Assembly: GCA_016712475.1 (NCBI GenBank)
Contig: JADJRA010000001.1
Location: 1,477,414 to 1,541,413 of the forward strand
Direction: 5' to 3'
DNA length: 64,000 nucleotides
From: Deltaproteobacteria bacterium
GTDB taxonomy: Bacteria; Myxococcota_A; Polyangia; Nannocystales; Nannocystaceae
Shown here: positions 13,077 to 32,512 of the stretch, in pieces
Position numbering within the stretch: the first letter of the stretch is position 1
Layout: each line of letters begins with the position of its first letter
Notes under the pieces: model-generated
The model's database searches: none
Told to the model about the DNA's origin: nothing
What the model saw: the letters and a program-made list of their open reading frames with translations, nothing else
Made by a program: the position numbers and the translations under genes

Positions 13077-14393
13077 ATGAGTGACGATCGCGAAGTACCC
13101 ACCGGCCGCCTGGCCCGCCTCGGCCGGCTGGTGAGCGTCGGCGCCCGTACCGGCGCCAGCCTGCTGCTGTCGAGCGACGGCAAGGGTGCCGCCGAGCACG
13201 CCGCCGCAGTGCTGGGATCGCTGCGTGGCCTCGCGGCCAAGGTCGGACAGATGGCGAGCTACGTCGATGGCTTCGTGCCCGACGACCACCGCGCGTCCTA
13301 CGAGCGCGCGATGGGTACGTTGTTGGCCGCCGCGCCACACTCGTCACCGGCGGCGATCCGCGCGGTGGTGGAGCGCGAGCTCGGCGCGCCGATCGATCAG
13401 CTCTTCACGACCTGGGAGGACGAACCCATGGCGAGTGCGTCGATCGGCCAGGTCCATCGCGCGACGCTGAAGGGCGGCGAAGAGGTGGCCGTCAAGGTGC
13501 AGCATCCCGGCATCGACCGCGCAATCGAGTCGGACTTGCGCAACGCCGGCATCATCGAGGGCCTGGTCGGCACGCTCGGCCCCAAGACGCTCAACACCAA
13601 GGAGGTCTTCGCGATCATCGCGGAGCGCTTCCGCGAAGAGCTCGACTACACGCTCGAGGCCGAGCGGCAGGAGCAGTTCGCCCGCATGCACGCCGGCGAC
13701 CCCGACGTGCGCATCCCCAAGGTCTACCGCGAGCGCAGCACCCGACGCGTCTTGACCACCGCGCTCGCGCGGGGCTTCGCCATCGACGAGGCCGCCGCAC
13801 GCAGCGAGGACGACCGCCGCCACTTCGCCGAGGTGCTGTGGCGGTTCGTGTTCCGCGGCAACCTCGTGGGGCAGATGTTCAATGCCGATCCTCACCCCGG
13901 CAACTACATCTTCCACGACGACGGCACGATCACCTTCCTCGACTTCGGCTGCGTACAGCCGCTGTTCGACCCCGAGCTGAGCCTCGCACGCTCGGCCCAC
14001 CGCGCCGCGCTCGCGCGCGACGAGGCCAGCTTCCGCCGCTGCATCGCGGCGATGCTCGCGACCAAGGGCGGCGCCTTCGAGGCGGCCGTGCTCGAGTACG
14101 TGCGGCGCTGCTTCGCACCGCTGTTCGAGGCGCCGTTTCGCATCGATCGCGCGTACGCGGCAGAGGTCGTGCGCGGCATCCAAGACCTCAAGCGCTTCGT
14201 GCTCAAGCGCGACAAGAGCTTCACCTCGCTGCCGCCCGGCCTGGTGTTCATGAATCGGCTGCAGTTCGGGTTCTACTCGGTGCTGGCGCGGTTCGACGTC
14301 GCGGTCGACTACGCCGAGATCGAGCGCGGCGTGCTGGGGGCCGCGGACCTCCTCGACGGCCCCCGCGTGCCGCCGACGCACGCGACCCCGTGA
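13077..14393 (+). CDS. ABC1/UbiB-family atypical kinase
   Basis: ATG at 13077 inside ORF 12918..14393. ABC1 motifs (ASIGQVHRATLKGGEEVAVKVQHPG, FNADPHPGNYIF, FLDFG). Confidence 0.75.
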   Translation: MSDDREVPTGRLARLGRLVSVGARTGASLLLSSDGKGAAEHAAAVLGSLRGLAAKVGQMASYVDGFVPDDHRASYERAMGTLLAAAPHSSPAAIRAVVERELGAPIDQLFTTWEDEPMASASIGQVHRATLKGGEEVAVKVQHPGIDRAIESDLRNAGIIEGLVGTLGPKTLNTKEVFAIIAERFREELDYTLEAERQEQFARMHAGDPDVRIPKVYRERSTRRVLTTALARGFAIDEAAARSEDDRRHFAEVLWRFVFRGNLVGQMFNADPHPGNYIFHDDGTITFLDFGCVQPLFDPELSLARSAHRAALARDEASFRRCIAAMLATKGGAFEAAVLEYVRRCFAPLFEAPFRIDRAYAAEVVRGIQDLKRFVLKRDKSFTSLPPGLVFMNRLQFGFYSVLARFDVAVDYAEIERGVLGAADLLDGPRVPPTHATP

Positions 14394-14470
14394 GCTAGCG
14401 CGCGCTCGCCCCCCATCGATTTTGCCGCACCGCAGGTGATCGCGCCGCGGTCCCCCGGCACTCTCGGGGC

Positions 14471-15019
14471 ATGGTGATGCGCGGTTGGGTTGCATGGGTG
14501 GTGGTGGTGGCGAGCGGCGCGGGGCTGGCCGGCGGTTGCACGTTCCAGGACGACAGCTGCGCGGATGGCTTCCGCTGCGCGAGGATTCCCGATGGTTCGA
14601 GCTCGTCCAGCGACGGCGACTCGCAGGCCTCGGACTCGGGTGCTTCGTCCGGGGCCGACGCGGCCTCCGGCTCGAGCTCGAGTGGCGACTCGGCGGCCGA
14701 CAGCGGCACCGATACCGCGCCCGACTGCGACGCGACCGATCCCAAGCCGGTGCTGAAGTTCGAGAATCGCACCGGCAACACCGTCGAGACCTTCGCCTTC
14801 GTGGCCTGCGACGGCACCATGCCCAGCGAGTTTCCACTACAGCCACCGGGCCTGCCGACGGATCAGGACGTCGAGGTGCCGCTGCCGGGCCCGGGTTGCT
14901 GGCTGATGAGCTACTCCGGCGACGGCTGCACCTCGGAGATGCCGTTCGAGGCCACGGTGTGCGCGGGCGAGACCGTCGTGTGGACCGCCGACGACGTGAA
15001 CCACCTGTGCATCGGATAG
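14471..15019 (+). CDS. small secreted lipoprotein, Ser/Asp-rich then Cys-containing domain
   Basis: MVMRGWVAWVVVVASGAGLAGGC lipoprotein signal, SSSSDGDSQASDSGASSGADAASGSSSSGDS linker, C-terminal domain with 6 Cys. Confidence 0.6.
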   Translation: MVMRGWVAWVVVVASGAGLAGGCTFQDDSCADGFRCARIPDGSSSSSDGDSQASDSGASSGADAASGSSSSGDSAADSGTDTAPDCDATDPKPVLKFENRTGNTVETFAFVACDGTMPSEFPLQPPGLPTDQDVEVPLPGPGCWLMSYSGDGCTSEMPFEATVCAGETVVWTADDVNHLCIG

Positions 15020-15059
15020 TCCCGGGGCTCGCCCTCGCGGGCGGCCGCGCGCGAAGGCG

Positions 15060-15644
15060 GTGATTCCCTTCCGGACCGCAAGGCGCGATGCTCCGGCGGA
15101 ACGTCCCTTGTCGACGCGCACCATCGGTCTGGTCGCCCTCACCTGCCTCGCCCTCGGCGGCGCGGTGGCGTGGTACGCGGCCCGCACCGACGGCGCGCAC
15201 GCGCCGGTGTCGGTCGTCGCGCCCGACGACGACGACGCCGACGACACCGACGCGGACGACGACGGGGAGAAGGCCGCCATGCAAGCCAAGGCGAAGATCT
15301 GCAAGAAGCTCGCGTGCACCGACTCGCAGCGCGGCGAGCTCGGTACCCTCATCCGAGTCTTTCGCGATGACACGCGCGAGCGCCGGGTCGAGCTGAAGAA
15401 CCTGCGCGCCAGCGCAGCGCAGGCGTGGGCCTCGGCGACCCCCGACGCCGCCCGCATCGCAGAGATCGAAACCCGCGTGCTCGAGCTCGAGGGCGAGATC
15501 GAGGGCGCCGCCCGCGGCGCGCTGCTCGGCTTCCATCGCGTGCTCGACGACGAACAGCGGCGCAAGCTCTCGCGCTGGCTGCGACGCAAGAGCGCGCGCG
15601 ACCTGCTGCAGGACAAGCGCGTGCGCAGCTCCGAGAGCGAGTGA
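15060..15644 (+). CDS. hypothetical periplasmic coiled-coil protein (possibly Spy/CpxP-like)
   Basis: Signal anchor LVALTCLALGGAVAWYAA, acidic tract DDDDADDTDADDDGE, charged helical C-terminus. Alternative in-frame TTG start at 15108. Stop TGA 15642-15644 lies 2 nt before the next ATG. Confidence 0.5.
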   Translation: MIPFRTARRDAPAERPLSTRTIGLVALTCLALGGAVAWYAARTDGAHAPVSVVAPDDDDADDTDADDDGEKAAMQAKAKICKKLACTDSQRGELGTLIRVFRDDTRERRVELKNLRASAAQAWASATPDAARIAEIETRVLELEGEIEGAARGALLGFHRVLDDEQRRKLSRWLRRKSARDLLQDKRVRSSESE

Positions 15645-15646
15645 CC

Positions 15647-17410
15647 ATGGCAGCGATCTGTGGCTACGTCGGTCGCGGCGACGAGGCGCTGCTGCTGCGC
15701 CAGCTGGGACTGCTGCGCCATCGCGGCGCGCACGCGCACGCGACCCGCATCGGTCCCGCCGGTGGTCTCGCCGTCGCTTCGCCGCCGGGGCGCGTCGCCG
15801 CGGTGGGCAGCAGCCGCGACGCCAAGGTGCACTGCGTGCTCGACGGCGCGTTGTTCGAGCACGCCGCGCTCGCCAGCCAGCTGGGCCTACCGGCCACCGC
15901 CAGCGCGGCCGAGCTGGTCGCGGAGCTGCTGGCGACCAAGGGCCCCGCGGCGCTCGGACAGCTCGACGGTGCCTACGCCGTCGCCGCGCTGTTCGAGGAC
16001 CACGTGCTGCTCGCCCGCGATCCGCTGGGTGAGAAGCCCATCTACTACGCGACCCTACCCGATGGCCGCTTCGCGTTCGCCTCCGAGATCAAGGCGTTCC
16101 TCGCCGATCCGGCGTTCGTGGTGAAGCCCCACGAGCCTTCGCTGGTGTCGCTGTTGGTGTTCTCGTTCATCCCGGGCGAACGCAGCATGTTCGACGACGT
16201 GTTCGAGCTGCAGCCGGGCTGCCACATCGAGCTCGGCGCTCGCGGGGCCTCGCCGCTGGTCTCGCACTGGCAGCTGCACGAGCAGGTCGAAGACCACGAG
16301 CTGCCCTACTTCACCGCCGAGATCGAGCGGCTGTGCATCGATGCGGTCGATCGCCGCATTCCCGCCGACGGCCGCGTGACCGCGACGCTCTCCGGTGGGG
16401 TCGACTCGTCGGCGGTGGTCGCCCTGCTGGCGCGCCGGGGCTGCAAGCCGGTATGTTTCTCGGCTGCCTTCGGCGACGGACAGCCCAACGAGCTCGGCTA
16501 CGCGCGACTGGTCGCGGAGCACTGCAAGGTCGAGCACCGCGTCATCGACGTCGAGCCGGAGGGCTTCCTCGACCTGCTGCCGCGGGTGATGTGGAACCTC
16601 GACGATCCGCTGTGCGATTGCATCACCGTGCCCAACTACTTGCTGGCACAGGCGGCCGCCCAGGAGGCGCCGGTGGTGTTCAACGGCGAGGGCGGCGATC
16701 CGCTCTTCGGCGGGCCGAAGAACAAGTTCCTCATCCTCGGCGAGTGGTACCGCGCCTACGGCGGCTATGACCGCGCGCGGGCCTACCTGGCCTCGTACCA
16801 CAAGTTCTTCGAGCACGCCCACGAGCTGTGCACGCCCGAGCTCATGGCGCGCAGCGGCGGCACCGAGGCGCTGTGCGACTACGTGCGGCCACTGCTCGAG
16901 GACGAGCGCATGGGCAACTTCCTCAACCGCCTGATGCACCTCAACATCAAGCTCAAGGGCGGCCAGAACATCCTCGTGAAGGTCGACAAGATGCTGTCGG
17001 CCAACGGCGTCGAGCCGGCCTCGCCGCTGTTCGATCGCAGGTTGGCGGAGTTCTCGTTCAAGATCCCACCGGTGCTCAAGCGCCGCGGCGATGTCGAGAA
17101 GTTCGCCTTCAAGAAGGCCATCGAGCACCTGCTGCCGCACCCCGTCGTCTATCGCAAGAAGTCCGGCATGGGTGTGCCGCTCAACCACTGGTTCCGTCGC
17201 GAGCCGCTGCGCAGCTACACCCGCGACGTGCTGCTGTCGTCGCACGCGCGTGGGCGCGGCTACTTCGACATGCGCTTCGTCGAGCGCCTGGTCGCCGGCA
17301 AGGCCCCGCACACCATGGTCGGCCGCGATCGCACCGGCGAGCTGCTGTGGATGCTGCTGGCGATCGAGCTGTGGCACCGGGTCTTCGTCGACGGTGAGGG
17401 ACGACCATGA
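15647..17410 (+). CDS. asparagine synthetase B-like amidoligase with degenerate glutaminase domain
   Basis: ATG at 15647 inside ORF 15425..17410. N-terminus MAAICGY rather than MCGI. NGEIYN motif not conserved. C-terminal synthetase domain is intact (SGGVDSS PP-loop, RDPLGEKPIYYA). Confidence 0.75.
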   Translation: MAAICGYVGRGDEALLLRQLGLLRHRGAHAHATRIGPAGGLAVASPPGRVAAVGSSRDAKVHCVLDGALFEHAALASQLGLPATASAAELVAELLATKGPAALGQLDGAYAVAALFEDHVLLARDPLGEKPIYYATLPDGRFAFASEIKAFLADPAFVVKPHEPSLVSLLVFSFIPGERSMFDDVFELQPGCHIELGARGASPLVSHWQLHEQVEDHELPYFTAEIERLCIDAVDRRIPADGRVTATLSGGVDSSAVVALLARRGCKPVCFSAAFGDGQPNELGYARLVAEHCKVEHRVIDVEPEGFLDLLPRVMWNLDDPLCDCITVPNYLLAQAAAQEAPVVFNGEGGDPLFGGPKNKFLILGEWYRAYGGYDRARAYLASYHKFFEHAHELCTPELMARSGGTEALCDYVRPLLEDERMGNFLNRLMHLNIKLKGGQNILVKVDKMLSANGVEPASPLFDRRLAEFSFKIPPVLKRRGDVEKFAFKKAIEHLLPHPVVYRKKSGMGVPLNHWFRREPLRSYTRDVLLSSHARGRGYFDMRFVERLVAGKAPHTMVGRDRTGELLWMLLAIELWHRVFVDGEGRP

Positions 17411-18189
17411 GCGCAGGCTTGCCCAGGGGCGTGGTCGAGTCGGCCGCATCGGCGATGGCGACCACCGCCGGCTGCGTGTTCACGCACAGCCAGCGGTTCT
17501 TCGAGCTGGTGCGCCGCGGCGCGCTCGCCGATCCAGGCGCCGATCTGGACGGCGCGATGCAGGCGTTCGAGTCGCGTCTGGCCGCCTTCGAGCACGACCA
17601 CGGCGAGCTCGAAGGGCTCATCCGACCCGAGCGCCTGGTCGATCTCCCGCCGCCGCCCGAGCTGCCACCCGACGTGCTCGACTACACGGTGCGCCGCGTG
17701 TTGGTGTTCGACCGCCTCGACACGTGCCTGTTCTTCGTCTGCAACGGCTTCCACCGGCGCATCGAGGTCGGGCTGGTGGTCTGGCCCGACGGCGCCGCAG
17801 AACCCGGGGCCGCGGGCTTCCCCTCCCATGTGTGCGACCGCTTGCGCGCCCAGCTCGACGAGGGCCTGCCAACCGACTTCTTCCTCATCGGGGACTGCGG
17901 CACGGCGGCGCGATCCTGGCGGCAACGCATGCACGCGACCCTCAAGCGGCCCCACGTGCGCGTGCGCGACGCGAGCCTGACATTCCCCTGGGCCTTCCGC
18001 CTGCGCCTGCCGGTGCGCGCCACCGGGCGCGCGCCCGACCCCCACGTCGTCATCCCCGAGGACCACGAATGGCGCGGCCTCTTGATGGTCGGCAGCTACG
18101 CGTCGCTGCAAGAGATGCCGCCGATGCGACTCATGCGATGGGTCTACCGCCGCGTGGCGCGGGGCGCCGAGGACGTCGGCTTCGGCTGA
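17407..18189 (+). CDS. hypothetical protein coupled to AsnB-like gene
   Basis: ATGA overlap with upstream stop. 260 aa, no family recognised. Contains LIGDCGTAARSW, which fits a GxCxxA transglutaminase-core-like motif. Confidence 0.55.
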   Translation: MSAGLPRGVVESAASAMATTAGCVFTHSQRFFELVRRGALADPGADLDGAMQAFESRLAAFEHDHGELEGLIRPERLVDLPPPPELPPDVLDYTVRRVLVFDRLDTCLFFVCNGFHRRIEVGLVVWPDGAAEPGAAGFPSHVCDRLRAQLDEGLPTDFFLIGDCGTAARSWRQRMHATLKRPHVRVRDASLTFPWAFRLRLPVRATGRAPDPHVVIPEDHEWRGLLMVGSYASLQEMPPMRLMRWVYRRVARGAEDVGFG

Positions 18190-18282
18190 CGATCGGCATG
18201 AAACCGCGCCGTCGCGAGCGGCAGCACACGCGCGCGGGCTTGCCACCGACGCCGTCGCTTTGATAACCAACGACGAACGATC

Positions 18283-18987
18283 ATGCAGCTCCTGCTGGAA
18301 CCACGCGACGGGGACGTCATCGATGCGACCTCGACCATGTACCCCAGCAGGCTCGTGGTCGTGCGCGGACGGCGGGAGCTGGGGCCTTCGACCTCGACCT
18401 TCTTCGGCTACGTGGTCGGCGGCAGCGGGCGCATGAAGGCCGGCAGCTTCGAGCTCGCGCTCGCGCCCGGCACGTTCTTCTGCGCGCCCGGACCGGTGCA
18501 GGTCGAGATCGACGGCATGGCGGTCGCGATCGAGCGGCTCGGCTATCGCGGCCTGCCGACCGCCGGCGTCATCGAGGACACCGGCCGGCTGACGTACATC
18601 GACGGCTGCTCCGACACCATCCTGGTGTCACCGCCCCGCCAGGGCGATCCGGTGTTCAACTTCCTGCACTTTCCGCCGGGCATCCAACAGACCGTGCACT
18701 CGCATCCGTCGATCCGCCTGGGGGTCGTTGCCCGCGGCGAGGGCCATGCGTTCGGTCCCGCGCGGGCCGACGGTCGCCACGGCGCGCAGTGGCAGCAGCC
18801 GCTGCGGCCCGGGGCGGTGTTCCTGCTGCATCCCCACGAGCTGCACGCGTTTCGCACCACCGGTGACGGCGGCGAGCACGACGGCAACGAGCACGGCATG
18901 GACGTCATCGCCTACCACCCCGACTCCGACTGGGGCCCGACCGATGGTGTCCACCCGATGTTGAACCGCACCTATCGCGGCACGTGA
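18283..18987 (+). CDS. cupin domain protein
   Basis: Cupin-like His-rich motifs (FLHFPPGIQQTVHSHPSIRLGVV..., LHPHELHAF). High GC3. Confidence 0.6.
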   Translation: MQLLLEPRDGDVIDATSTMYPSRLVVVRGRRELGPSTSTFFGYVVGGSGRMKAGSFELALAPGTFFCAPGPVQVEIDGMAVAIERLGYRGLPTAGVIEDTGRLTYIDGCSDTILVSPPRQGDPVFNFLHFPPGIQQTVHSHPSIRLGVVARGEGHAFGPARADGRHGAQWQQPLRPGAVFLLHPHELHAFRTTGDGGEHDGNEHGMDVIAYHPDSDWGPTDGVHPMLNRTYRGT

Positions 18988-19038
18988 CTCGGGCGCCCGC
19001 TGCGGGCAACCGTGATAGGCTGAACGGCTGGAGGCCCC

Positions 19039-21012
19039 ATGCGCCGACTGGCTCTGTTGTTCCGCGGCACCTCGCTGTCCCCCGCCCTGCTCGCGTTGAT
19101 CTCCGCCTGTGCGGGCTCCGATGCCGGCGACAACCCGGCGAGCTTCGGGCCCGGCACCGCGAGCGACTCGTCGAGCGACGACTCGTCCGTCGACGGCGAT
19201 TCGAGCTCCGATGGCTCGGCATCGATGACCGGCGATCCGACCACGTCGACCACGATGACGACCACCACCGCCGACGACACCAGCAGCGGCGAGTGCATGG
19301 ATGGCGAGACCCGCGATTGCTACTCCGGCCCCGCGGGCACGCAGAACGTCGGCATCTGTGCCGCCGGCACCGAGTCGTGCGTCGGCGGCATGTGGTCGGG
19401 GCAATGCATGGGTGAAGAGACGCCCGGCATCGAGATGTGCAACGGCGTCGACGAGAACTGCAACGGCATGACCGACGAGGGTCTGAACGCCGGCGCCTGC
19501 AACACCGGCTTGGCCGGCCCCTGTGCCACCGGCGTCAGCATGTGCACCGAGGGCGCGATGATGTGCGTGCCCGATGTCGAGCCCGTGGCAGAGGTCTGCG
19601 GCGACGGCATCGACCAGAACTGCAACGGCACGCCCGACGACGGCTGCATGATGTCGTGCCCGTTCGTGTACGGACACGACGGCCGACGCTGGCACTACGA
19701 GGGCGCGGTCGGTGGCGCGAGCCTGATCGGTCGCCCCGAGCAGGTCGAGCGTGGCCGCGGCAAGCGCGTCGAGTTCGCGCCGCTCGCGGTGCCGCTCGCG
19801 AGCGCGGCGGTACAGCGCGACCACGACGGACGCGGTCGCGCGCGCGCGCTGCTGCTGGTCGGCGAGGACGAGATCGCCTACGTCGATCGGCTCGCGCTGG
19901 CAGTGGTCGAGCACGCTCGAGGCACCGAGGTCGTCGCGAGCTCGGCGCTGCAGTGGTCGGCCTCGCAGCGGGCCGAGCGAGCGCCGTTCATCGCGCTACC
20001 CACCGCCGGCATGCGCACCCCCGATCACGCGAGCTGGCGCGGTCGTGTGGACGTCACCGAGGCGATTGCACGCCGCGACGATCATGCGGTCGCCTTCGAC
20101 TGCGCACACGAGAACTTCTACGAACTCGACTTCGGCGAGGTCGAGCACACCGACGCCGCCATCCACCTCGTGGTCGACGGCTGGAAGCTCAAGCACGAGC
20201 GCGCGCTCGGGCCCGATGTGCGCCGCCGCCGGCCGTTCGTGCAGGTGCAGCGGGCCGACGGTGCGTGGCACACGGTGATGCAGGTGCCTTCGCCGCGTGG
20301 CGATCGCAAGACCGTCGCGATCGATCTGTCCGCGGTGCGCTTCGACGGACCGCGGTACCGCGTGCGCCTGTGGACGGGTACCCACGAGGGTGGGCTGGCG
20401 ATGTGGTACGTCGATCGCGTGCGCCTGTGCGTCGGAGCCCCGAGCCCGGTGCAGGTGGCCTCGCTGTCGCCCGCGAGCGCGCGCCTTCACTTCGCGGGCG
20501 CGCCCTCGGGCCTCGACGACGGCGACCGCGCGCAGCCGCGGTGGAACGTGCCCGACGGTCGCGGCGAGCTCACCGACGCGCAGTGCACCTACGGCGACTT
20601 CACGGCCTACGGCGAGGTCGCGCCGCTGCTGCACCGCGCCGACGACTGCGTGGTCGTGATGCGCAGGGGCGACGCCATCGAGCTGGAGTTCGAGGGCATC
20701 GCAGCGCCGGACGAGGGCCGGGTGCAGACGTTGTGGCTCGACAGCGAGCTGCTCTACAAGCCACGGGTCGTGCCGGGCACCACCGGCGACTCGTCGCTGA
20801 CGCGCAACGTCGGGCCACTGCCGCACCGTGGCATGGGGCACTACCGCGGCGACGCACCGCCGCGCCGCGATCTCGCCTATCTCGCCTATCAACGGCGCTG
20901 GAACACGCGGCGGTACGAGCCCGGCTCGACCCACTGGGGCGAGTCGCGCCACAGCCAAGGCGCACGGCGACGTGCGGTGGTCACCGCCCTGGCGGTGCCG
21001 CTCGCGGCCTGA
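19039..21012 (+). CDS. lipoprotein with MopE-like Cys-rich (putative metal-binding) repeats
   Basis: Signal MRRLALLFRGTSLSPALLALISAC with lipobox. Ser/Asp linker. Repeats CNGVDENCNGMTDEG and CGDGIDQNCNGTPDDGC typical of the myxobacterial putative metal-binding motif. Large C-terminal domain. Confidence 0.65.
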   Translation: MRRLALLFRGTSLSPALLALISACAGSDAGDNPASFGPGTASDSSSDDSSVDGDSSSDGSASMTGDPTTSTTMTTTTADDTSSGECMDGETRDCYSGPAGTQNVGICAAGTESCVGGMWSGQCMGEETPGIEMCNGVDENCNGMTDEGLNAGACNTGLAGPCATGVSMCTEGAMMCVPDVEPVAEVCGDGIDQNCNGTPDDGCMMSCPFVYGHDGRRWHYEGAVGGASLIGRPEQVERGRGKRVEFAPLAVPLASAAVQRDHDGRGRARALLLVGEDEIAYVDRLALAVVEHARGTEVVASSALQWSASQRAERAPFIALPTAGMRTPDHASWRGRVDVTEAIARRDDHAVAFDCAHENFYELDFGEVEHTDAAIHLVVDGWKLKHERALGPDVRRRRPFVQVQRADGAWHTVMQVPSPRGDRKTVAIDLSAVRFDGPRYRVRLWTGTHEGGLAMWYVDRVRLCVGAPSPVQVASLSPASARLHFAGAPSGLDDGDRAQPRWNVPDGRGELTDAQCTYGDFTAYGEVAPLLHRADDCVVVMRRGDAIELEFEGIAAPDEGRVQTLWLDSELLYKPRVVPGTTGDSSLTRNVGPLPHRGMGHYRGDAPPRRDLAYLAYQRRWNTRRYEPGSTHWGESRHSQGARRRAVVTALAVPLAA

Positions 21013-21036
21013 CACCGCACGCCCGCGCGCCACGGC

Positions 21037-21426
21037 CTAGCGATAGTCGGTGAGGTGCTTGCGAGCTCCCGCGCGGCCGTGCTCCCGCTCGTCGGCCTGC
21101 TGACACTCGATGCACAGGCGCGCCCACGGCATCAGCTCGAGTCGACGACGCCCGATGGGCTCCTCGCAGGTCTCGCAGGCGCCGAACGACTCCGGGTCAT
21201 CGTGCATGCGCTCGAGCGCGGCCTCGATCTCCCGCAGCTGCTCGGCGCGCGTGCGGTTGCGGTTCGACGCGATGACCTGGGCCATCTCCGCCAGGGGTTG
21301 CGCGTCCTCGTCGATCTTGCGCGCCGGATCGATCTCTTGCCCGAGCTCGAGGTCGCCGCCGGCTCGTAGCGAGTCGCGCATGCCGCGGAGCCGCGCTTCG
21401 ATGGTCTGACGCAGCGCGTCGTCCAT
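21037..21426 (-). CDS. DksA/TraR-family C4 zinc-finger protein
   Basis: ATG at 21426 inside ORF 21037..21684. MDDALRQTIEARLRGMRDSL. Zinc-finger CETCEEPIGRRRLELMPWARLCIEC. Confidence 0.75.
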   Translation of the reverse strand: MDDALRQTIEARLRGMRDSLRAGGDLELGQEIDPARKIDEDAQPLAEMAQVIASNRNRTRAEQLREIEAALERMHDDPESFGACETCEEPIGRRRLELMPWARLCIECQQADEREHGRAGARKHLTDYR

Positions 21427-21680
21427 GATCGGGCGCGTAGCATACCGTGTAGGTGCACCCCACGCACGGGCCCGGCGGCGTCGGTGGCCCGTCGACTTCG
21501 CGGGTCCAGGCGTTCGCTGCGAAAATCTGCCGCAGTCAGGGCGCCACGCAGCGCGCCGAACCGGTGGCCACGACGGGCCGACGCGGTTCGTCGATGAGGG
21601 TGGTGCGGCGAGCCGCTGGCCGGCGCGGCGGGATCCATGACGACGACCCCTCATCACGCCGGCACCTGCGCCGGCTCGCC

Positions 21681-21926
21681 TCACGCCGGCGCATTGCGGC
21701 GGACGCGGGCGGCGGCTTCGCCGATCTCTCCTGGTTCCGGAAAGCGATGCTGCTCGTGCTTGCTGAACACGCGTTCGTTCGCGACGAACACATCGAAGAT
21801 GCCGCGCGCGCCCTCGACGAGCTCGATCCGCAGATCGTCACCCAACGCTGCCTTCAACTCGGCGACCACACGGGTCGCCTGCGGCAGGTAGTTTCACTTC
21901 ACGCAGTAGATGATGCGGACGTCCAT
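21681..21926 (-). CDS. SelW-like selenoprotein (Rdx family) with in-frame UGA selenocysteine codon
   Basis: Minus-strand reading atg gac gtc cgc atc atc tac tgc gtg aag TGA aac tac ctg ccg cag gcg acc cgt gtg gtc gcc gag... gives MDVRIIYCVKUNYLPQATRVVAELKAALGDDLRIELVEGARGIFDVFVANERVFSKHEQHRFPEPGEI. The CxxU redox motif and the FDVFV...FSK...RFP C-terminus match SelW. TGA is at forward 21894-21896. The ORF track only lists the downstream 62-aa segment starting at the post-UGA GTG. Confidence 0.6.
21862..21880 (-). ncRNA. putative bacterial SECIS hairpin downstream of the SelW UGA
   Basis: GGCGACC-CGUGU-GGUCGCC, a 7-bp perfect stem with 5-nt loop, begins 14 nt after the UGA on the mRNA. This is the usual position for a bacterial SECIS. 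Confidence 0.45.
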
Positions 21927-22193
21927 GACGGCAATGTTAGCCCAGCCGCCGCCGCGACGATGAATCCCACCGATCGGGCCGCGCAGCCGACAATCTGAAG
22001 CAGACCTTTCGCGCCGTGACGGTTGCATCGCACGTCGATGTTACGCCCGTGCTGCGATCATCGTCGTGCGTTGGCTCGGGCGCGCGGCACGACTGCGCGA
22101 CGATGCGTGCCAAAGTGCCACGCCGCCGCCTTCAGTCCCAGCGCGCTTCCGCACTCGCGCATGCACGTGCGCTCGGGGCGAACGGGGTCACGT

Positions 22194-22220
22194 TGACCGG
22201 CCAGTTGCATCGCATAAGCT
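22194..22220 (+). promoter_or_regulatory. possible sigma-70-like promoter upstream of the FIST gene
   Basis: TTGACC at 22194-22199, TAAGCT at 22215-22220 with a 15-nt spacer, in a locally lower-GC 300-bp intergenic region. Spacing is suboptimal. Confidence 0.2.
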
Positions 22221-22239
22221 GTGAACACTTCGAGGTGCC

Positions 22240-23400
22240 ATGGACATCGTGAGCGTCGGACCTGTGAGTGGAGGACCTGATGCGCTGCGACGCGAGTTCG
22301 CAGCCGTGGGCTCGCGCGTGGACGGGCCCAAGCTCGCCATCGTGTACCTTCCCTTCGATGTGGATCACGCGGCGTACCTCGCGGCCGCGAGCGAGGGCAT
22401 CGGCGGGCCCGTCGTGGGCGCGACGACGGCCGGCGCCGCGTTCACCGAGCGTGGGTTCAGCACCACCGATCCGGTCGGCGCAGTGCTGTCCGGCCGCGGC
22501 TTCTCGTACTCGATCAGCGTCGCCTCCGATCTCTCGCGTGATCCCGCGACCGCCGTCCGCACCGCCGCGCGACGGCTGGTCGACGCCGCCCATCGCACCA
22601 GCGCGCGCAGCCAGGTGCTGCTGACCTTGGCCGACGGGTTCGCCTGCGATGGCGAGGTGCTCTACGGCGCGTTGCAGCAGAGCGTCCCGCCGCACTGGCG
22701 AATGCTCGGCACCAACGCCGGCGGCGGGCAGCACCTGCGACAGGCCTGCGTCTTCGCCGGCCGCGAGATCCTCCGCGACGCCGCGATCCTCATCGGCCTG
22801 TTCTCCGACGCGGCGCCTTCGCTGGTCGCCCACCACGGCTGGCGCGGCGTCGACGGCAGCGCCGAGATGACGGTCACCGAGGTCGAGGGCAACATCCTGC
22901 GTCGGCTCGACGATCGCCCGGCGCTGGAGGCCTACCGCGCCGAGCTCATCCGGCTCGGCTGCATGCGCGACGGCGACGACTTCATGAGTGTCACGGCGAC
23001 CCACGAGCTCGGCATGCGCACGATGTTCGGCGACCAGCTCAAAATCCGGGCGGCGATGGCCGTGGGTGAAGACGGCGCGATCAAGCTCGCGAGTGCGATC
23101 CCCGTCGGCGCGAAGGTGTGCATCGCAACCGCCAGCGCCGACGAGCTCATCGAGGCCGCGCGCACGTTGTCGAGTCGCGCGCTCGAGCCCTTCGAGCGCC
23201 AGGCGCTACACGGCGCGCTGGTGTTCGACTGCGGCGCGCGGCTGCAACGCCTCGGTGCGCGCTACGGCGAGGAGGTCACCGCGTTCTCGGGTGGTCGCCA
23301 CTTCCCGCTCGTCGGCGTCGCCGGCTACGGCGAGATCGCCAAGTTCGCGGGCAGCATCGACGGCTTCCACAACGCGACCGCCGTGATGGCGGTGTGGTGA
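22240..23400 (+). CDS. FIST-domain sensory protein
   Basis: FIST_N/FIST_C-like organisation (LAIVYLPFDVDHAAYLAAASEG..., GGRHFPLVGVAGYGEIAKF). Confidence 0.6.
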   Translation: MDIVSVGPVSGGPDALRREFAAVGSRVDGPKLAIVYLPFDVDHAAYLAAASEGIGGPVVGATTAGAAFTERGFSTTDPVGAVLSGRGFSYSISVASDLSRDPATAVRTAARRLVDAAHRTSARSQVLLTLADGFACDGEVLYGALQQSVPPHWRMLGTNAGGGQHLRQACVFAGREILRDAAILIGLFSDAAPSLVAHHGWRGVDGSAEMTVTEVEGNILRRLDDRPALEAYRAELIRLGCMRDGDDFMSVTATHELGMRTMFGDQLKIRAAMAVGEDGAIKLASAIPVGAKVCIATASADELIEAARTLSSRALEPFERQALHGALVFDCGARLQRLGARYGEEVTAFSGGRHFPLVGVAGYGEIAKFAGSIDGFHNATAVMAVW

Positions 23401-30604: not shown

Positions 30605-30613
30605 GCCACCGTC

Positions 30614-32512
30614 ATGTGCGGCATCACCGGGATGATTCGGACCGGCGGCAGCGTCGACGCAGCGCTGCTCGATCGCATGACCGACAGTCTCGCCCACCGT
30701 GGCCCCGACGGTCGCGGCGTGCACATCGGCGACGGCTTCGGCTTCGGACATCGGCGGCTCGCGATCATCGATCTCTCGACGGGCGCGCAGCCGATGCACA
30801 GCGCCGACGGGATGCTGTGCATCACCTTCAACGGCGAGATCTACAACTACATCGAGCTGCGTGCGCAGCTGATCCGTGCCGGCCACCGCTTCGAGACCCA
30901 CAGCGACACCGAGGTGCTGCTCGCGGCCTACCGCGAGTGGGGCGACGAGATGTTCGGGCACCTCGATGGCATGTTTGCGTTCGGGCTGTGGGACGCGGGA
31001 CGACGGCGGCTGCTTTGTGCCCGCGATCATCTCGGCGTCAAGCCGCTGTACTACGCCGAGCAGCGCTCGCCGCTCGAGGGCGACACACCGCTGTCGTTCG
31101 CATCGGAGCCCAAGGCACTGCTGCAGTGCCCGTGGGTCTCGCGCGAGCTCGACCCGGTCGCGCTCGACGCCTACATGGATCTCTTCTACGTGCCGCCGCC
31201 GTTGTCGATGTTCCGCGGCGTGCGACAGCTGCCGCCCGGCTCGGCGCTGTCGTGGTGCGATGGCAAGCTCGCGATCTGGCGCTACTGGGACGCGCCACCG
31301 ACCATCGACGAGCGCCACGACCTCGAGACCTGGGCCGAGATCGTGGAGCCGGTGCTCCGCGACGCGATCGTCATCCAGACCCGCAGCGACGTGCCTCTGG
31401 GCGCGTTCCTCTCGGGTGGGCTCGACTCCTCGACCATCACCGCGGTGCTGGCCGAACACGGCAGCGCGCCGGTCTCGACCTTCTGTGTCGGCTACGGCGA
31501 CGAGGGCAAGAGCTACGACGAGCGGGAAATGGCGCGGGTGGTCGCTCGGCACTTCGGCACCGATCACCACGAGGTCGTGCTCGACATCGACGTGCTGCAG
31601 GGTCTCGAGGCGATGGTGCGCGGCTTCGACGAGCCGTTCGGCAGCCCGACTGCGCTGCTGTCGTCGGCGCTATCGAAGTTCACCCGTGGCAGCGTGACCG
31701 TCGCGCTCGCCGGCGACGGTGGCGACGAGCTGTTCGGCGGCTACCCCCGCTACCGCGGCATGATGCTGTCGGAGCGCGTGTCGGGCCTGCCCGAGGGCGT
31801 CTACAACGCCGGCGAGCGGCTCGCCCAGGGCCGCGAGGCCGCGGTCGCACGCAGCTATCGACGGTGGGCTCGCCAGTTCTTCGCCGGCGCGGCATTGCCC
31901 CCCGCCGAGCGCTACGCCCGCTGGGTCGGTTACACCAGCGTGGCCGAGCGCGACGGCATGTACACCCCGGCCTTCCGTGAGCGCATCGTCTCGGCCGGCC
32001 GCGTCGATCCGGTCGCAGCGTGCTTCGCCGGGCCTGCCCACGGCGATGCGGTCGAGCGCGCCGCCTATGCCGATCTGCACGGCTTCCTGCCCGAGAACGT
32101 GCTGCGCGGCTCCGATCGCATGAGCATGGCCTGGGGTCTCGAGCTGCGGGTGCCGCTTTGTGACGTGCGGCTGGTCGAGCTCGCGATGCAGATCCCCTCG
32201 CGGCACCGCGTCGGCGCGCTCGCGAGCAAGCGCGTGCTGCGACGCATCGCCGAGAACCTGCTGCCCAAGCAGATCCTCGAGCGCAAGAAGCTCGGCTTCA
32301 ACGCCCCGCTGGGCGTGTGGCTGCGCCGAGATCTCGATCGACTGGTCTCGCAGTGGCTCGCACCGGAGCTCGTGCGCGCGCGGGGGTGGTTCGACGCCGA
32401 CGCCGTCACCCGGATCGTGCACGAGCATCGCGAGGGGCTGCGAGACCACGGGCTGCGGCTGTGGTCGCTCATCGCGATCGAGCAGTGGCACCGCTGCTAC
32501 GGCGAGGCCTAG
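30614..32512 (+). CDS. asnB: asparagine synthase (glutamine-hydrolysing), canonical
   Basis: N-terminal MCGITG nucleophile, HRGPDG, NGEIYNY, SGGLDSS PP-loop. Starts 10 nt after the ligase stop. Confidence 0.85.
   Translation: MCGITGMIRTGGSVDAALLDRMTDSLAHRGPDGRGVHIGDGFGFGHRRLAIIDLSTGAQPMHSADGMLCITFNGEIYNYIELRAQLIRAGHRFETHSDTEVLLAAYREWGDEMFGHLDGMFAFGLWDAGRRRLLCARDHLGVKPLYYAEQRSPLEGDTPLSFASEPKALLQCPWVSRELDPVALDAYMDLFYVPPPLSMFRGVRQLPPGSALSWCDGKLAIWRYWDAPPTIDERHDLETWAEIVEPVLRDAIVIQTRSDVPLGAFLSGGLDSSTITAVLAEHGSAPVSTFCVGYGDEGKSYDEREMARVVARHFGTDHHEVVLDIDVLQGLEAMVRGFDEPFGSPTALLSSALSKFTRGSVTVALAGDGGDELFGGYPRYRGMMLSERVSGLPEGVYNAGERLAQGREAAVARSYRRWARQFFAGAALPPAERYARWVGYTSVAERDGMYTPAFRERIVSAGRVDPVAACFAGPAHGDAVERAAYADLHGFLPENVLRGSDRMSMAWGLELRVPLCDVRLVELAMQIPSRHRVGALASKRVLRRIAENLLPKQILERKKLGFNAPLGVWLRRDLDRLVSQWLAPELVRARGWFDADAVTRIVHEHREGLRDHGLRLWSLIAIEQWHRCYGEA

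Follow-up and report, generated by a model that had tools for sequence, protein, structure and literature searches.

The SelW-like gene is carried by the minus strand of the 64,000-nucleotide stretch of DNA analysed here, referred to as the window. Translation of this strand from 21926 to 21681 gives MDVRIIYCVK, an in-frame UGA and then NYLPQATRVVAELKAALGDDLRIELVEGARGIFDVFVANERVFSKHEQHRFPEPGEIGEAAARVRRNAPA up to the terminal stop. The interrupted reading frame is exactly the one claimed by an earlier sequence-only reading of the locus, and its coordinates were checked. The frame opens at an ATG (21926-21924), in agreement with the starts found in relatives, and closes at a TGA (21683-21681), while the Cys8 codon is TGC (21905-21903). 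The mechanical list of open reading frames showed at this locus only a 62-aa fragment and a piece of 44 aa that stops at the UGA; the six-frame track misses the full gene, as had been noticed from the letters. The GTG start of the 62-aa fragment (21869-21867) takes two bases from the end of the loop and one from the beginning of the 3' arm of the putative SECIS hairpin. This ORF is an annotation artefact and no separate gene. The features of the locus are collected in Table 1.

Table 1. Features of the SelW-like locus and its neighbours, in window coordinates.
Feature	Position	Strand	Basis
SelW-like (Rdx family) selenoprotein CDS (predicted), 81 residues including Sec11	21681..21926	minus	translation, PF10262, TIGR02174, structure-profile match
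CxxU redox motif, Cys8-Val-Lys-Sec11	21894..21905	minus	aligned on CxxC of Cys-form homologs and structures
In-frame UGA, predicted to be read as selenocysteine (Sec11)	21894..21896	minus	same-column TGA in relatives
Bacterial SECIS hairpin (predicted)	21861..21879	minus	bSECIS model constraints and covariation
SECIS 5' arm, GGCGACC	21879-21873	minus	
SECIS apical loop, CGUGU, conserved G at 21871	21872-21868	minus	
SECIS 3' arm, GGUCGCC	21867-21861	minus	
62-aa fragment, gene-caller product	21681..21869	minus	ORF list
FIST N+C domain gene, divergent from the SelW-like gene	22240-23400	plus	domain match
DksA/TraR zinc-finger gene	21426-21037	minus	254 nt downstream of the SelW-like gene, same strand

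No Shine-Dalgarno-like sequence was evident upstream of the SelW-like ATG. The 15 nt immediately 5' of the ATG (21927-21941, minus strand), GCTAACATTGCCGTC, are conserved in three relatives (L001, L003 and L007) and the next ~200 nt are not; this short stretch may be a leader or an unusual initiation signal. A promoter scan of 20900-22400 found no sigma-70-like promoter, and a terminator scan of the same interval gave one terminator-like site, located on the opposite strand inside the SelW-like CDS and likely due to chance. After the terminal UGA (21658-21683, minus strand), a 6-bp hairpin, GCCGGC-GCAGGU-GCCGGC, follows 5 nt later with a loop that begins with G. This loop lies only 11 nt downstream, outside the 16-37-nt spacing of a SECIS, and the structure is probably a transcript-end structure or a chance pairing.

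The family of the protein was then searched after substituting Cys for Sec. The 81-residue read-through product reached 60.4 bits with the Pfam Rdx model PF10262 (E=2e-16, cut-off 22.6), and the 62-aa fragment alone gave 33.3 bits, still above the cut-off. The ten upstream residues together with the UGA position thus contribute ~27 bits of the Rdx family signal. The NCBIfam model TIGR02174 (CXXU_selWTH) gave 50.4 bits, above its cut-off of 34.2, and the equivalog model NF041051 (SelTWH_Campy, the SelT/SelW/SelH family) 79.7 bits with E=1.4e-22, below its cut-off of 88. These two NCBIfam models were the best-scoring named ones, residues 3-70 being matched over the whole ~70-position model. The protein is inside PF10262 and TIGR02174, just outside the narrow NF041051 equivalog, and its attribution to the Rdx/SelW-like proteins, as read earlier from the letters, is borne out by both of the broader models.

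A profile built from the SelW-like protein and its relatives matched six solved bacterial Rdx proteins (3DEX, 2FA8, 2OJL, 2OKA, 2OBK and 2P0G), together with human C17orf37 and mouse selenoprotein W (2NPB). In these alignments the C8-V-K-U11 motif falls on CTQC of 3DEX and 2FA8 and on CAPC of the database proteins P0007 and P0008, near the N-terminus and directly after the first beta-strand. The redox motif proposed from the sequence is therefore aligned with the CxxC of the solved Rdx proteins and of the Cys-form homologs. The G-x-F-x-V ... F-P-x-P signature is also common to the SelW-like protein and the solved Rdx structures. The profile match to these structures (E=4e-16) points to a thioredoxin-like fold for the SelW-like protein.

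In the public gene calls, the SelW-like gene and its close relatives appear as fragments of 48-62 aa or are replaced by a spurious ORF on the antisense strand. The database entries of six close relatives (P0001-P0006) have 48-62 aa, all of them being truncated and beginning at differing, arbitrary downstream starts. The DNA upstream of these fragments exhibited in each case an ATG, the module M-x-[IV]-[RK]-I-I-[YW]-C-x-x, a TGA and then N/S-Y. The UGA and the upstream module are retained in the seven loci (six of them distinct) that were obtained from protein-database matches, and TGA occupies the same column in L001-L009, L012 and L018. The metagenome scan found 282 relatives, of which 80 were kept, and TGA is present at the Sec column in 80/80. 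The more general module M-x-[IV]-x-I-x-[YW]-C-x-x is conserved in the protein-database loci, in the Sec-form metagenome-assembled genomes (MAGs) and in all 80 of these metagenome loci. Altogether, TGA and an intact N-terminal module are found in more than 85 relatives from several phyla, at identities down to ~42%. Every relative keeps the CxxU across the UGA, contrary to the situation, envisaged by the sequence-only reading as fatal to it, in which close relatives would all begin at the downstream GTG and be devoid of this module. An internal downstream start is itself not conserved, the gene callers' choice varying between relatives.

The scan of species-representative genomes recovered Sec forms in a 'delta proteobacterium', in a Thermoanaerobaculia MAG (L009) and in a Myxococcales MAG, three MAGs in all. 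It also recovered Cys forms (CxxC), which belong to a more distant clade of ~90 aa from Actinomycetota and Chloroflexota MAGs. Cys stands at the Sec column in P0007, P0008, L010, L011 and L013-L016, and an alignment proposed earlier as a check of whether Cys replaces Sec in some relatives thus gave a positive answer, in this distant clade. Among L004-L006, third-position synonymous differences were observed 5' of the UGA, which shows that the stretch upstream of the UGA is translated. A Sec/Cys pair, together with coding conservation on both sides of the UGA, is how a selenoprotein family is classically recognized.

A 7-bp perfect hairpin, GGCGACC-CGUGU-GGUCGCC, begins 14 nt past the UGA, with the sequence and the spacing originally described. 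The published bSECIS model asks for an apical loop of 3-9 nt on an upper stem of 4-16 bp, a G at the first or second loop position, as a rule with G or U after it, a distance of 16-37 nt from the UGA to the loop and a minimum free energy of at most -7.5 kcal/mol (PMC13188914). The window hairpin, with 7 bp, a 5-nt loop whose second base is G and whose third is U, a UGA-to-loop distance of 21 nt and -12.1 kcal/mol, lies within all four published constraints. Its fold z-score is -1.8. Of the 926 TGA triplets in this window of 71% G+C, 2.6% precede a Watson-Crick hairpin of at least 7 bp that agrees with the bSECIS model. Taken alone, the hairpin is only moderately unusual in this G+C-rich DNA.

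The helix was also considered in alignment A5, which comprises 69 distinct gap-free sequences covering the UGA plus 45 nt. In the helix columns (18-24 with 30-36), 87.2% of the cells are paired, compared with 23-61% after shifting the partner by 1-3 columns. Changes on both sides of a pair (compensatory cells) number 54 against 15.3±3.1 in shuffled alignments, none of 500 shuffles reaching the observed value, and the covariation score is 0.322 versus 0.111. Pair 21-33 occurs as C-G (n=35), G-C (n=14) and U-A (n=9), and pair 18-36 as G-C (n=30), C-G (n=8) and A-U (n=5). The resemblance to a SECIS proposed from the letters alone is thereby extended to covariation among the relatives. Loop position 26 is an invariant G while the residue encoded there varies between Arg, Ser and Gly, amino acids whose codons have G in the second position; the constraint at this site thus appears to act on the nucleotide rather than on the protein.

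The middle helix pair, columns 22/32 of A5 (21875/21865 in the window), is unpaired in 25 of the 69 sequences. By eye, these mismatches are mostly U opposite C and occur in 'IDYCGVU' sequences like that of the Thermoanaerobaculia MAG L009. They form a conserved 1x1 internal loop, and the window's own helix is perfect. In the MR[VI][KR]IIWCKPU subgroup (L004-L006), the best hairpin is shifted by 2 nt. The E. coli fdhF SECIS carries a bulged U, to which nothing corresponds in the window hairpin. Hairpin energy was also tried as a discriminator between Sec and Cys forms and was not clean, as two Cys forms also fold well: in the Solirubrobacterales MAGs L010 (10001-10213) and L015 (10001-10207), a hairpin of 8-9 bp lies directly past the Cys codon, with -14.7 and -15.1 kcal/mol. 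These could be fossil SECIS elements left from a Sec-to-Cys conversion, or chance structures in G+C-rich DNA.

The decisive support is comparative, namely the UGA column kept in 80/80 relatives together with the covarying helix. These alignments make it very probable that one gene, on the minus strand from 21926 to 21681, encodes an 81-residue SelW-like (Rdx) protein, in which the UGA is read, under the guidance of the SECIS, as Sec11 within the active site C8-V-K-U11. The UGA at 21896-21894 coincides with the second redox position of the family. Following the standard bacterial Sec pathway, the hairpin at 21879-21861 would be bound by SelB in complex with GTP and Sec-tRNA(Sec), and this complex would deliver Sec at the UGA in place of termination by release factor 2. 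Readthrough of this kind would leave gene callers with a truncated fragment only. The terminal UGA (21683-21681) would terminate translation since it has no correctly spaced SECIS. By analogy with the family, the product is predicted to be a small thiol/selenol oxidoreductase that would cycle through a Cys8-Sec11 selenenylsulfide and be reduced by a cellular thiol system.

We then searched for the selenocysteine machinery. ARAGORN and Rfam models found no tRNA-Sec in the 64-kb window, the only tRNA being a tRNA-Asp, and the Pfam and NCBIfam models found no SelA, SelB or SelD among ~43 high-GC3 ORFs that together span almost all of the window. No tRNA-Sec was found beside the SelW-like genes in 50 related loci. 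Additionally, further selenoprotein genes were sought in the window as two high-GC3 ORF halves joined by a TGA. The scan yielded only two matches, both artefact-like: the first falls at the stop codon of a catalase ORF and the second is an unconserved ORF opposite an FHA-domain ORF. It is an insensitive scan, which missed the SelW-like gene itself because its upstream half is too short. Decoding of the UGA is nonetheless plausible, because the UGA, the CxxU and the covarying SECIS are strictly retained family-wide and the identical gene is present in at least one independent assembly. Gene and hairpin are identical in L098 (GCA_020051655.1), and this locus, L101 (GCA_016709225.1) and L102 share ~99.7% identity with the window over this region, while GCA_009612795.1 matches it at ~97-98%. 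The near-identical NCBI MAG assemblies were located through the DksA-like neighbour protein; an exact-sequence look-up of the FIST neighbour protein found no entry.

The identity of the inserted residue leaves room for a different, improbable reading, in which the UGA and SECIS are decoded through the SelB route as cysteine by a tRNA of the tRNA(ReC) type, either solely or in a selenium-dependent way, the product being partly or wholly a CxxC Rdx protein. Such a tRNA is reported to decode UGA as Cys given a downstream SECIS, in some Desulfobacterota and other genomes (PMC13582414), and nothing in the window shows which tRNA is available. It is, however, a minority trait, encountered in ~17% of the Sec-type genomes surveyed and there alongside canonical SelC (PMC13582414). 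Moreover, the short clade holds to TGA in 80/80 relatives, though a TGY codon would be sufficient to insert Cys without special machinery.

A still smaller probability is given to the UGA being a true stop, with the real gene being the 62-aa ORF from the GTG at 21869, or no gene at all, and the CxxU stretch the remnant of a pseudogene that arose by a TGY-to-TGA change. This would agree with the ORF reported by the gene callers, with the passing of the Pfam Rdx cut-off by the fragment alone and with the failure to find Sec machinery in the window. But a remnant would not preserve the TGA and an intact N-terminal module in so many relatives of several phyla, the downstream start varies between them, the 62-aa product would have neither the first beta-strand nor any of the redox centre, and the helix past the UGA covaries. 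The hardly credible proposal that UGA is a sense codon genome-wide (Trp or Gly, genetic codes 4 and 25) without special recoding has nothing specific in its favour and was weighed only since an alternative code is one possible meaning of an in-frame UGA. The ORFs of the window effectively refute it: the SelW-like gene itself ends with UGA, and long high-GC3 ORFs with full-length Pfam matches are bounded by ordinary table 11 stops. At the UGA column, the homologs have Cys, neither Trp nor Gly.

The SelW-like selenoprotein gene is surrounded by myxobacterial-looking content: three Ser/Thr kinases with TPR repeats, an FHA-domain protein, a DUF1552/DUF1592 pair, a MopE-type Cys-rich protein and ECF-type sigma factors. 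The FIST neighbour resembles the nitric-oxide sensor NosP only weakly, scoring 49.9 bits where the cut-off is 450. Among the close relatives, L001 and L003 have the FIST gene as a neighbour, and L001, L007, L018 and L098-L102 have it together with the DksA/TraR gene. The divergent FIST/SelW-like pairing is kept only in close relatives, and distant Sec forms have other neighbours, such as GST, glyoxalase and adenine glycosylase in L004-L006. BLASTP clustering over 85 loci gave no universal neighbour gene; the only large neighbour cluster consists of antisense ORFs overlapping the SelW-like gene, and the remaining synteny is lineage-specific. It is possible, if unlikely, that the short SelW-like clade (~75-80 aa, 80/80 TGA) is obligately Sec-using and that the FIST/SelW/DksA-TraR arrangement forms a selenium-dependent redox-signalling module feeding RNA-polymerase regulation.

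The spacer between the SelW-like and DksA-like genes differs among close relatives. A segment of ~162 nt that separates the SelW-like stop from the start of the DksA-like gene (21478-21651) is also present in L098, L101 and L102 (99.7%), and ~12 nt replace it in L007, L018 and L099 (97-98% identity). The segment was examined as a possible repeat element, and no other copy was found in the window. In L001, this gap holds a 462-aa ORF without family match that overlaps the SelW-like stop codon. In the corresponding part of L001 (L001:4616-5808), the DksA-like gene is directly followed by a homolog of window 14242-15019, and ~6 kb of the window (15019-21033) are missing at that place; this part carries an asparagine synthase, two ORFs without Pfam match and a 657-aa MopE-like Cys-rich protein. 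The window contains two asparagine-synthase paralogs (GATase_7 + Asn_synthase) 13 kb apart on the plus strand, at 15371-17410 and 30605-32512, each adjoining ORFs without family match, and their surroundings may be biosynthetic or exopolysaccharide-type clusters.

Bacterial SelW-like CXXU selenoproteins with a SECIS inside the coding sequence have been known since 2004-2005. In the Sargasso Sea data, 48 SelW-like genes outnumbered those of any other selenoprotein family (Zhang, Fomenko and Gladyshev 2005, PMC1088965), and members have been listed in several Deltaproteobacteria, Clostridia and Symbiobacterium (Zhang et al. 2006, PMC1794560). The latter survey noted few Cys homologs of SelW-like proteins in Sec-using organisms (PMC1794560), which matches the 80/80 TGA observed here. 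The window protein shares with these described selenoproteins (PMC1088965, PMC1794560) its small Rdx size, the N-terminal CXXU, the in-frame UGA and the in-CDS SECIS, as well as the routine mis-annotation and the rarity of Cys homologs relative to Sec forms. There is no difference of kind, the window copy being found in a myxobacterium-like genome of 71% G+C. In the 2006 survey, no SelW-like selenoprotein was attributed to the myxobacterium listed there, Anaeromyxobacter (PMC1794560). The solved bacterial Rdx proteins (3DEX SAV_2001, 2FA8 Atu0228, 2OBK and 2P0G) and mouse 2NPB align with the profile from end to end, the CxxU falling on CxxC or CxxU; the bacterial ones are CxxC forms of ~105 aa, whereas the window protein appears to be an 81-aa Sec form. 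Mammalian SelW has its SECIS in the 3'-UTR (PMC1088965), unlike the window gene, whose hairpin is in the CDS.

On the sequence evidence, the gene is a genuine SelW-like (Rdx) CxxU selenoprotein gene with a canonical bSECIS, and its product an ordinary member of a well-known family. The result is a correct re-annotation and no discovery, and knowledge of selenoproteins is unchanged by it. The full 81-residue CDS corrects the public annotation of the gene and of its close relatives, and the 69-sequence alignment illustrates cleanly how the structure of an mRNA constrains the protein it encodes. For the organism, the gene indicates that an abundant environmental lineage, myxobacterium-like in character, probably uses selenocysteine, and Anaeromyxobacter, a Myxococcota relative, is itself a Sec user with 11 selenoproteins (PMC1794560). 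If the lineage of the window does use selenocysteine, as is probable, selA, selB, selC and selD would be predicted elsewhere in its genome, together with further hidden selenoproteins.
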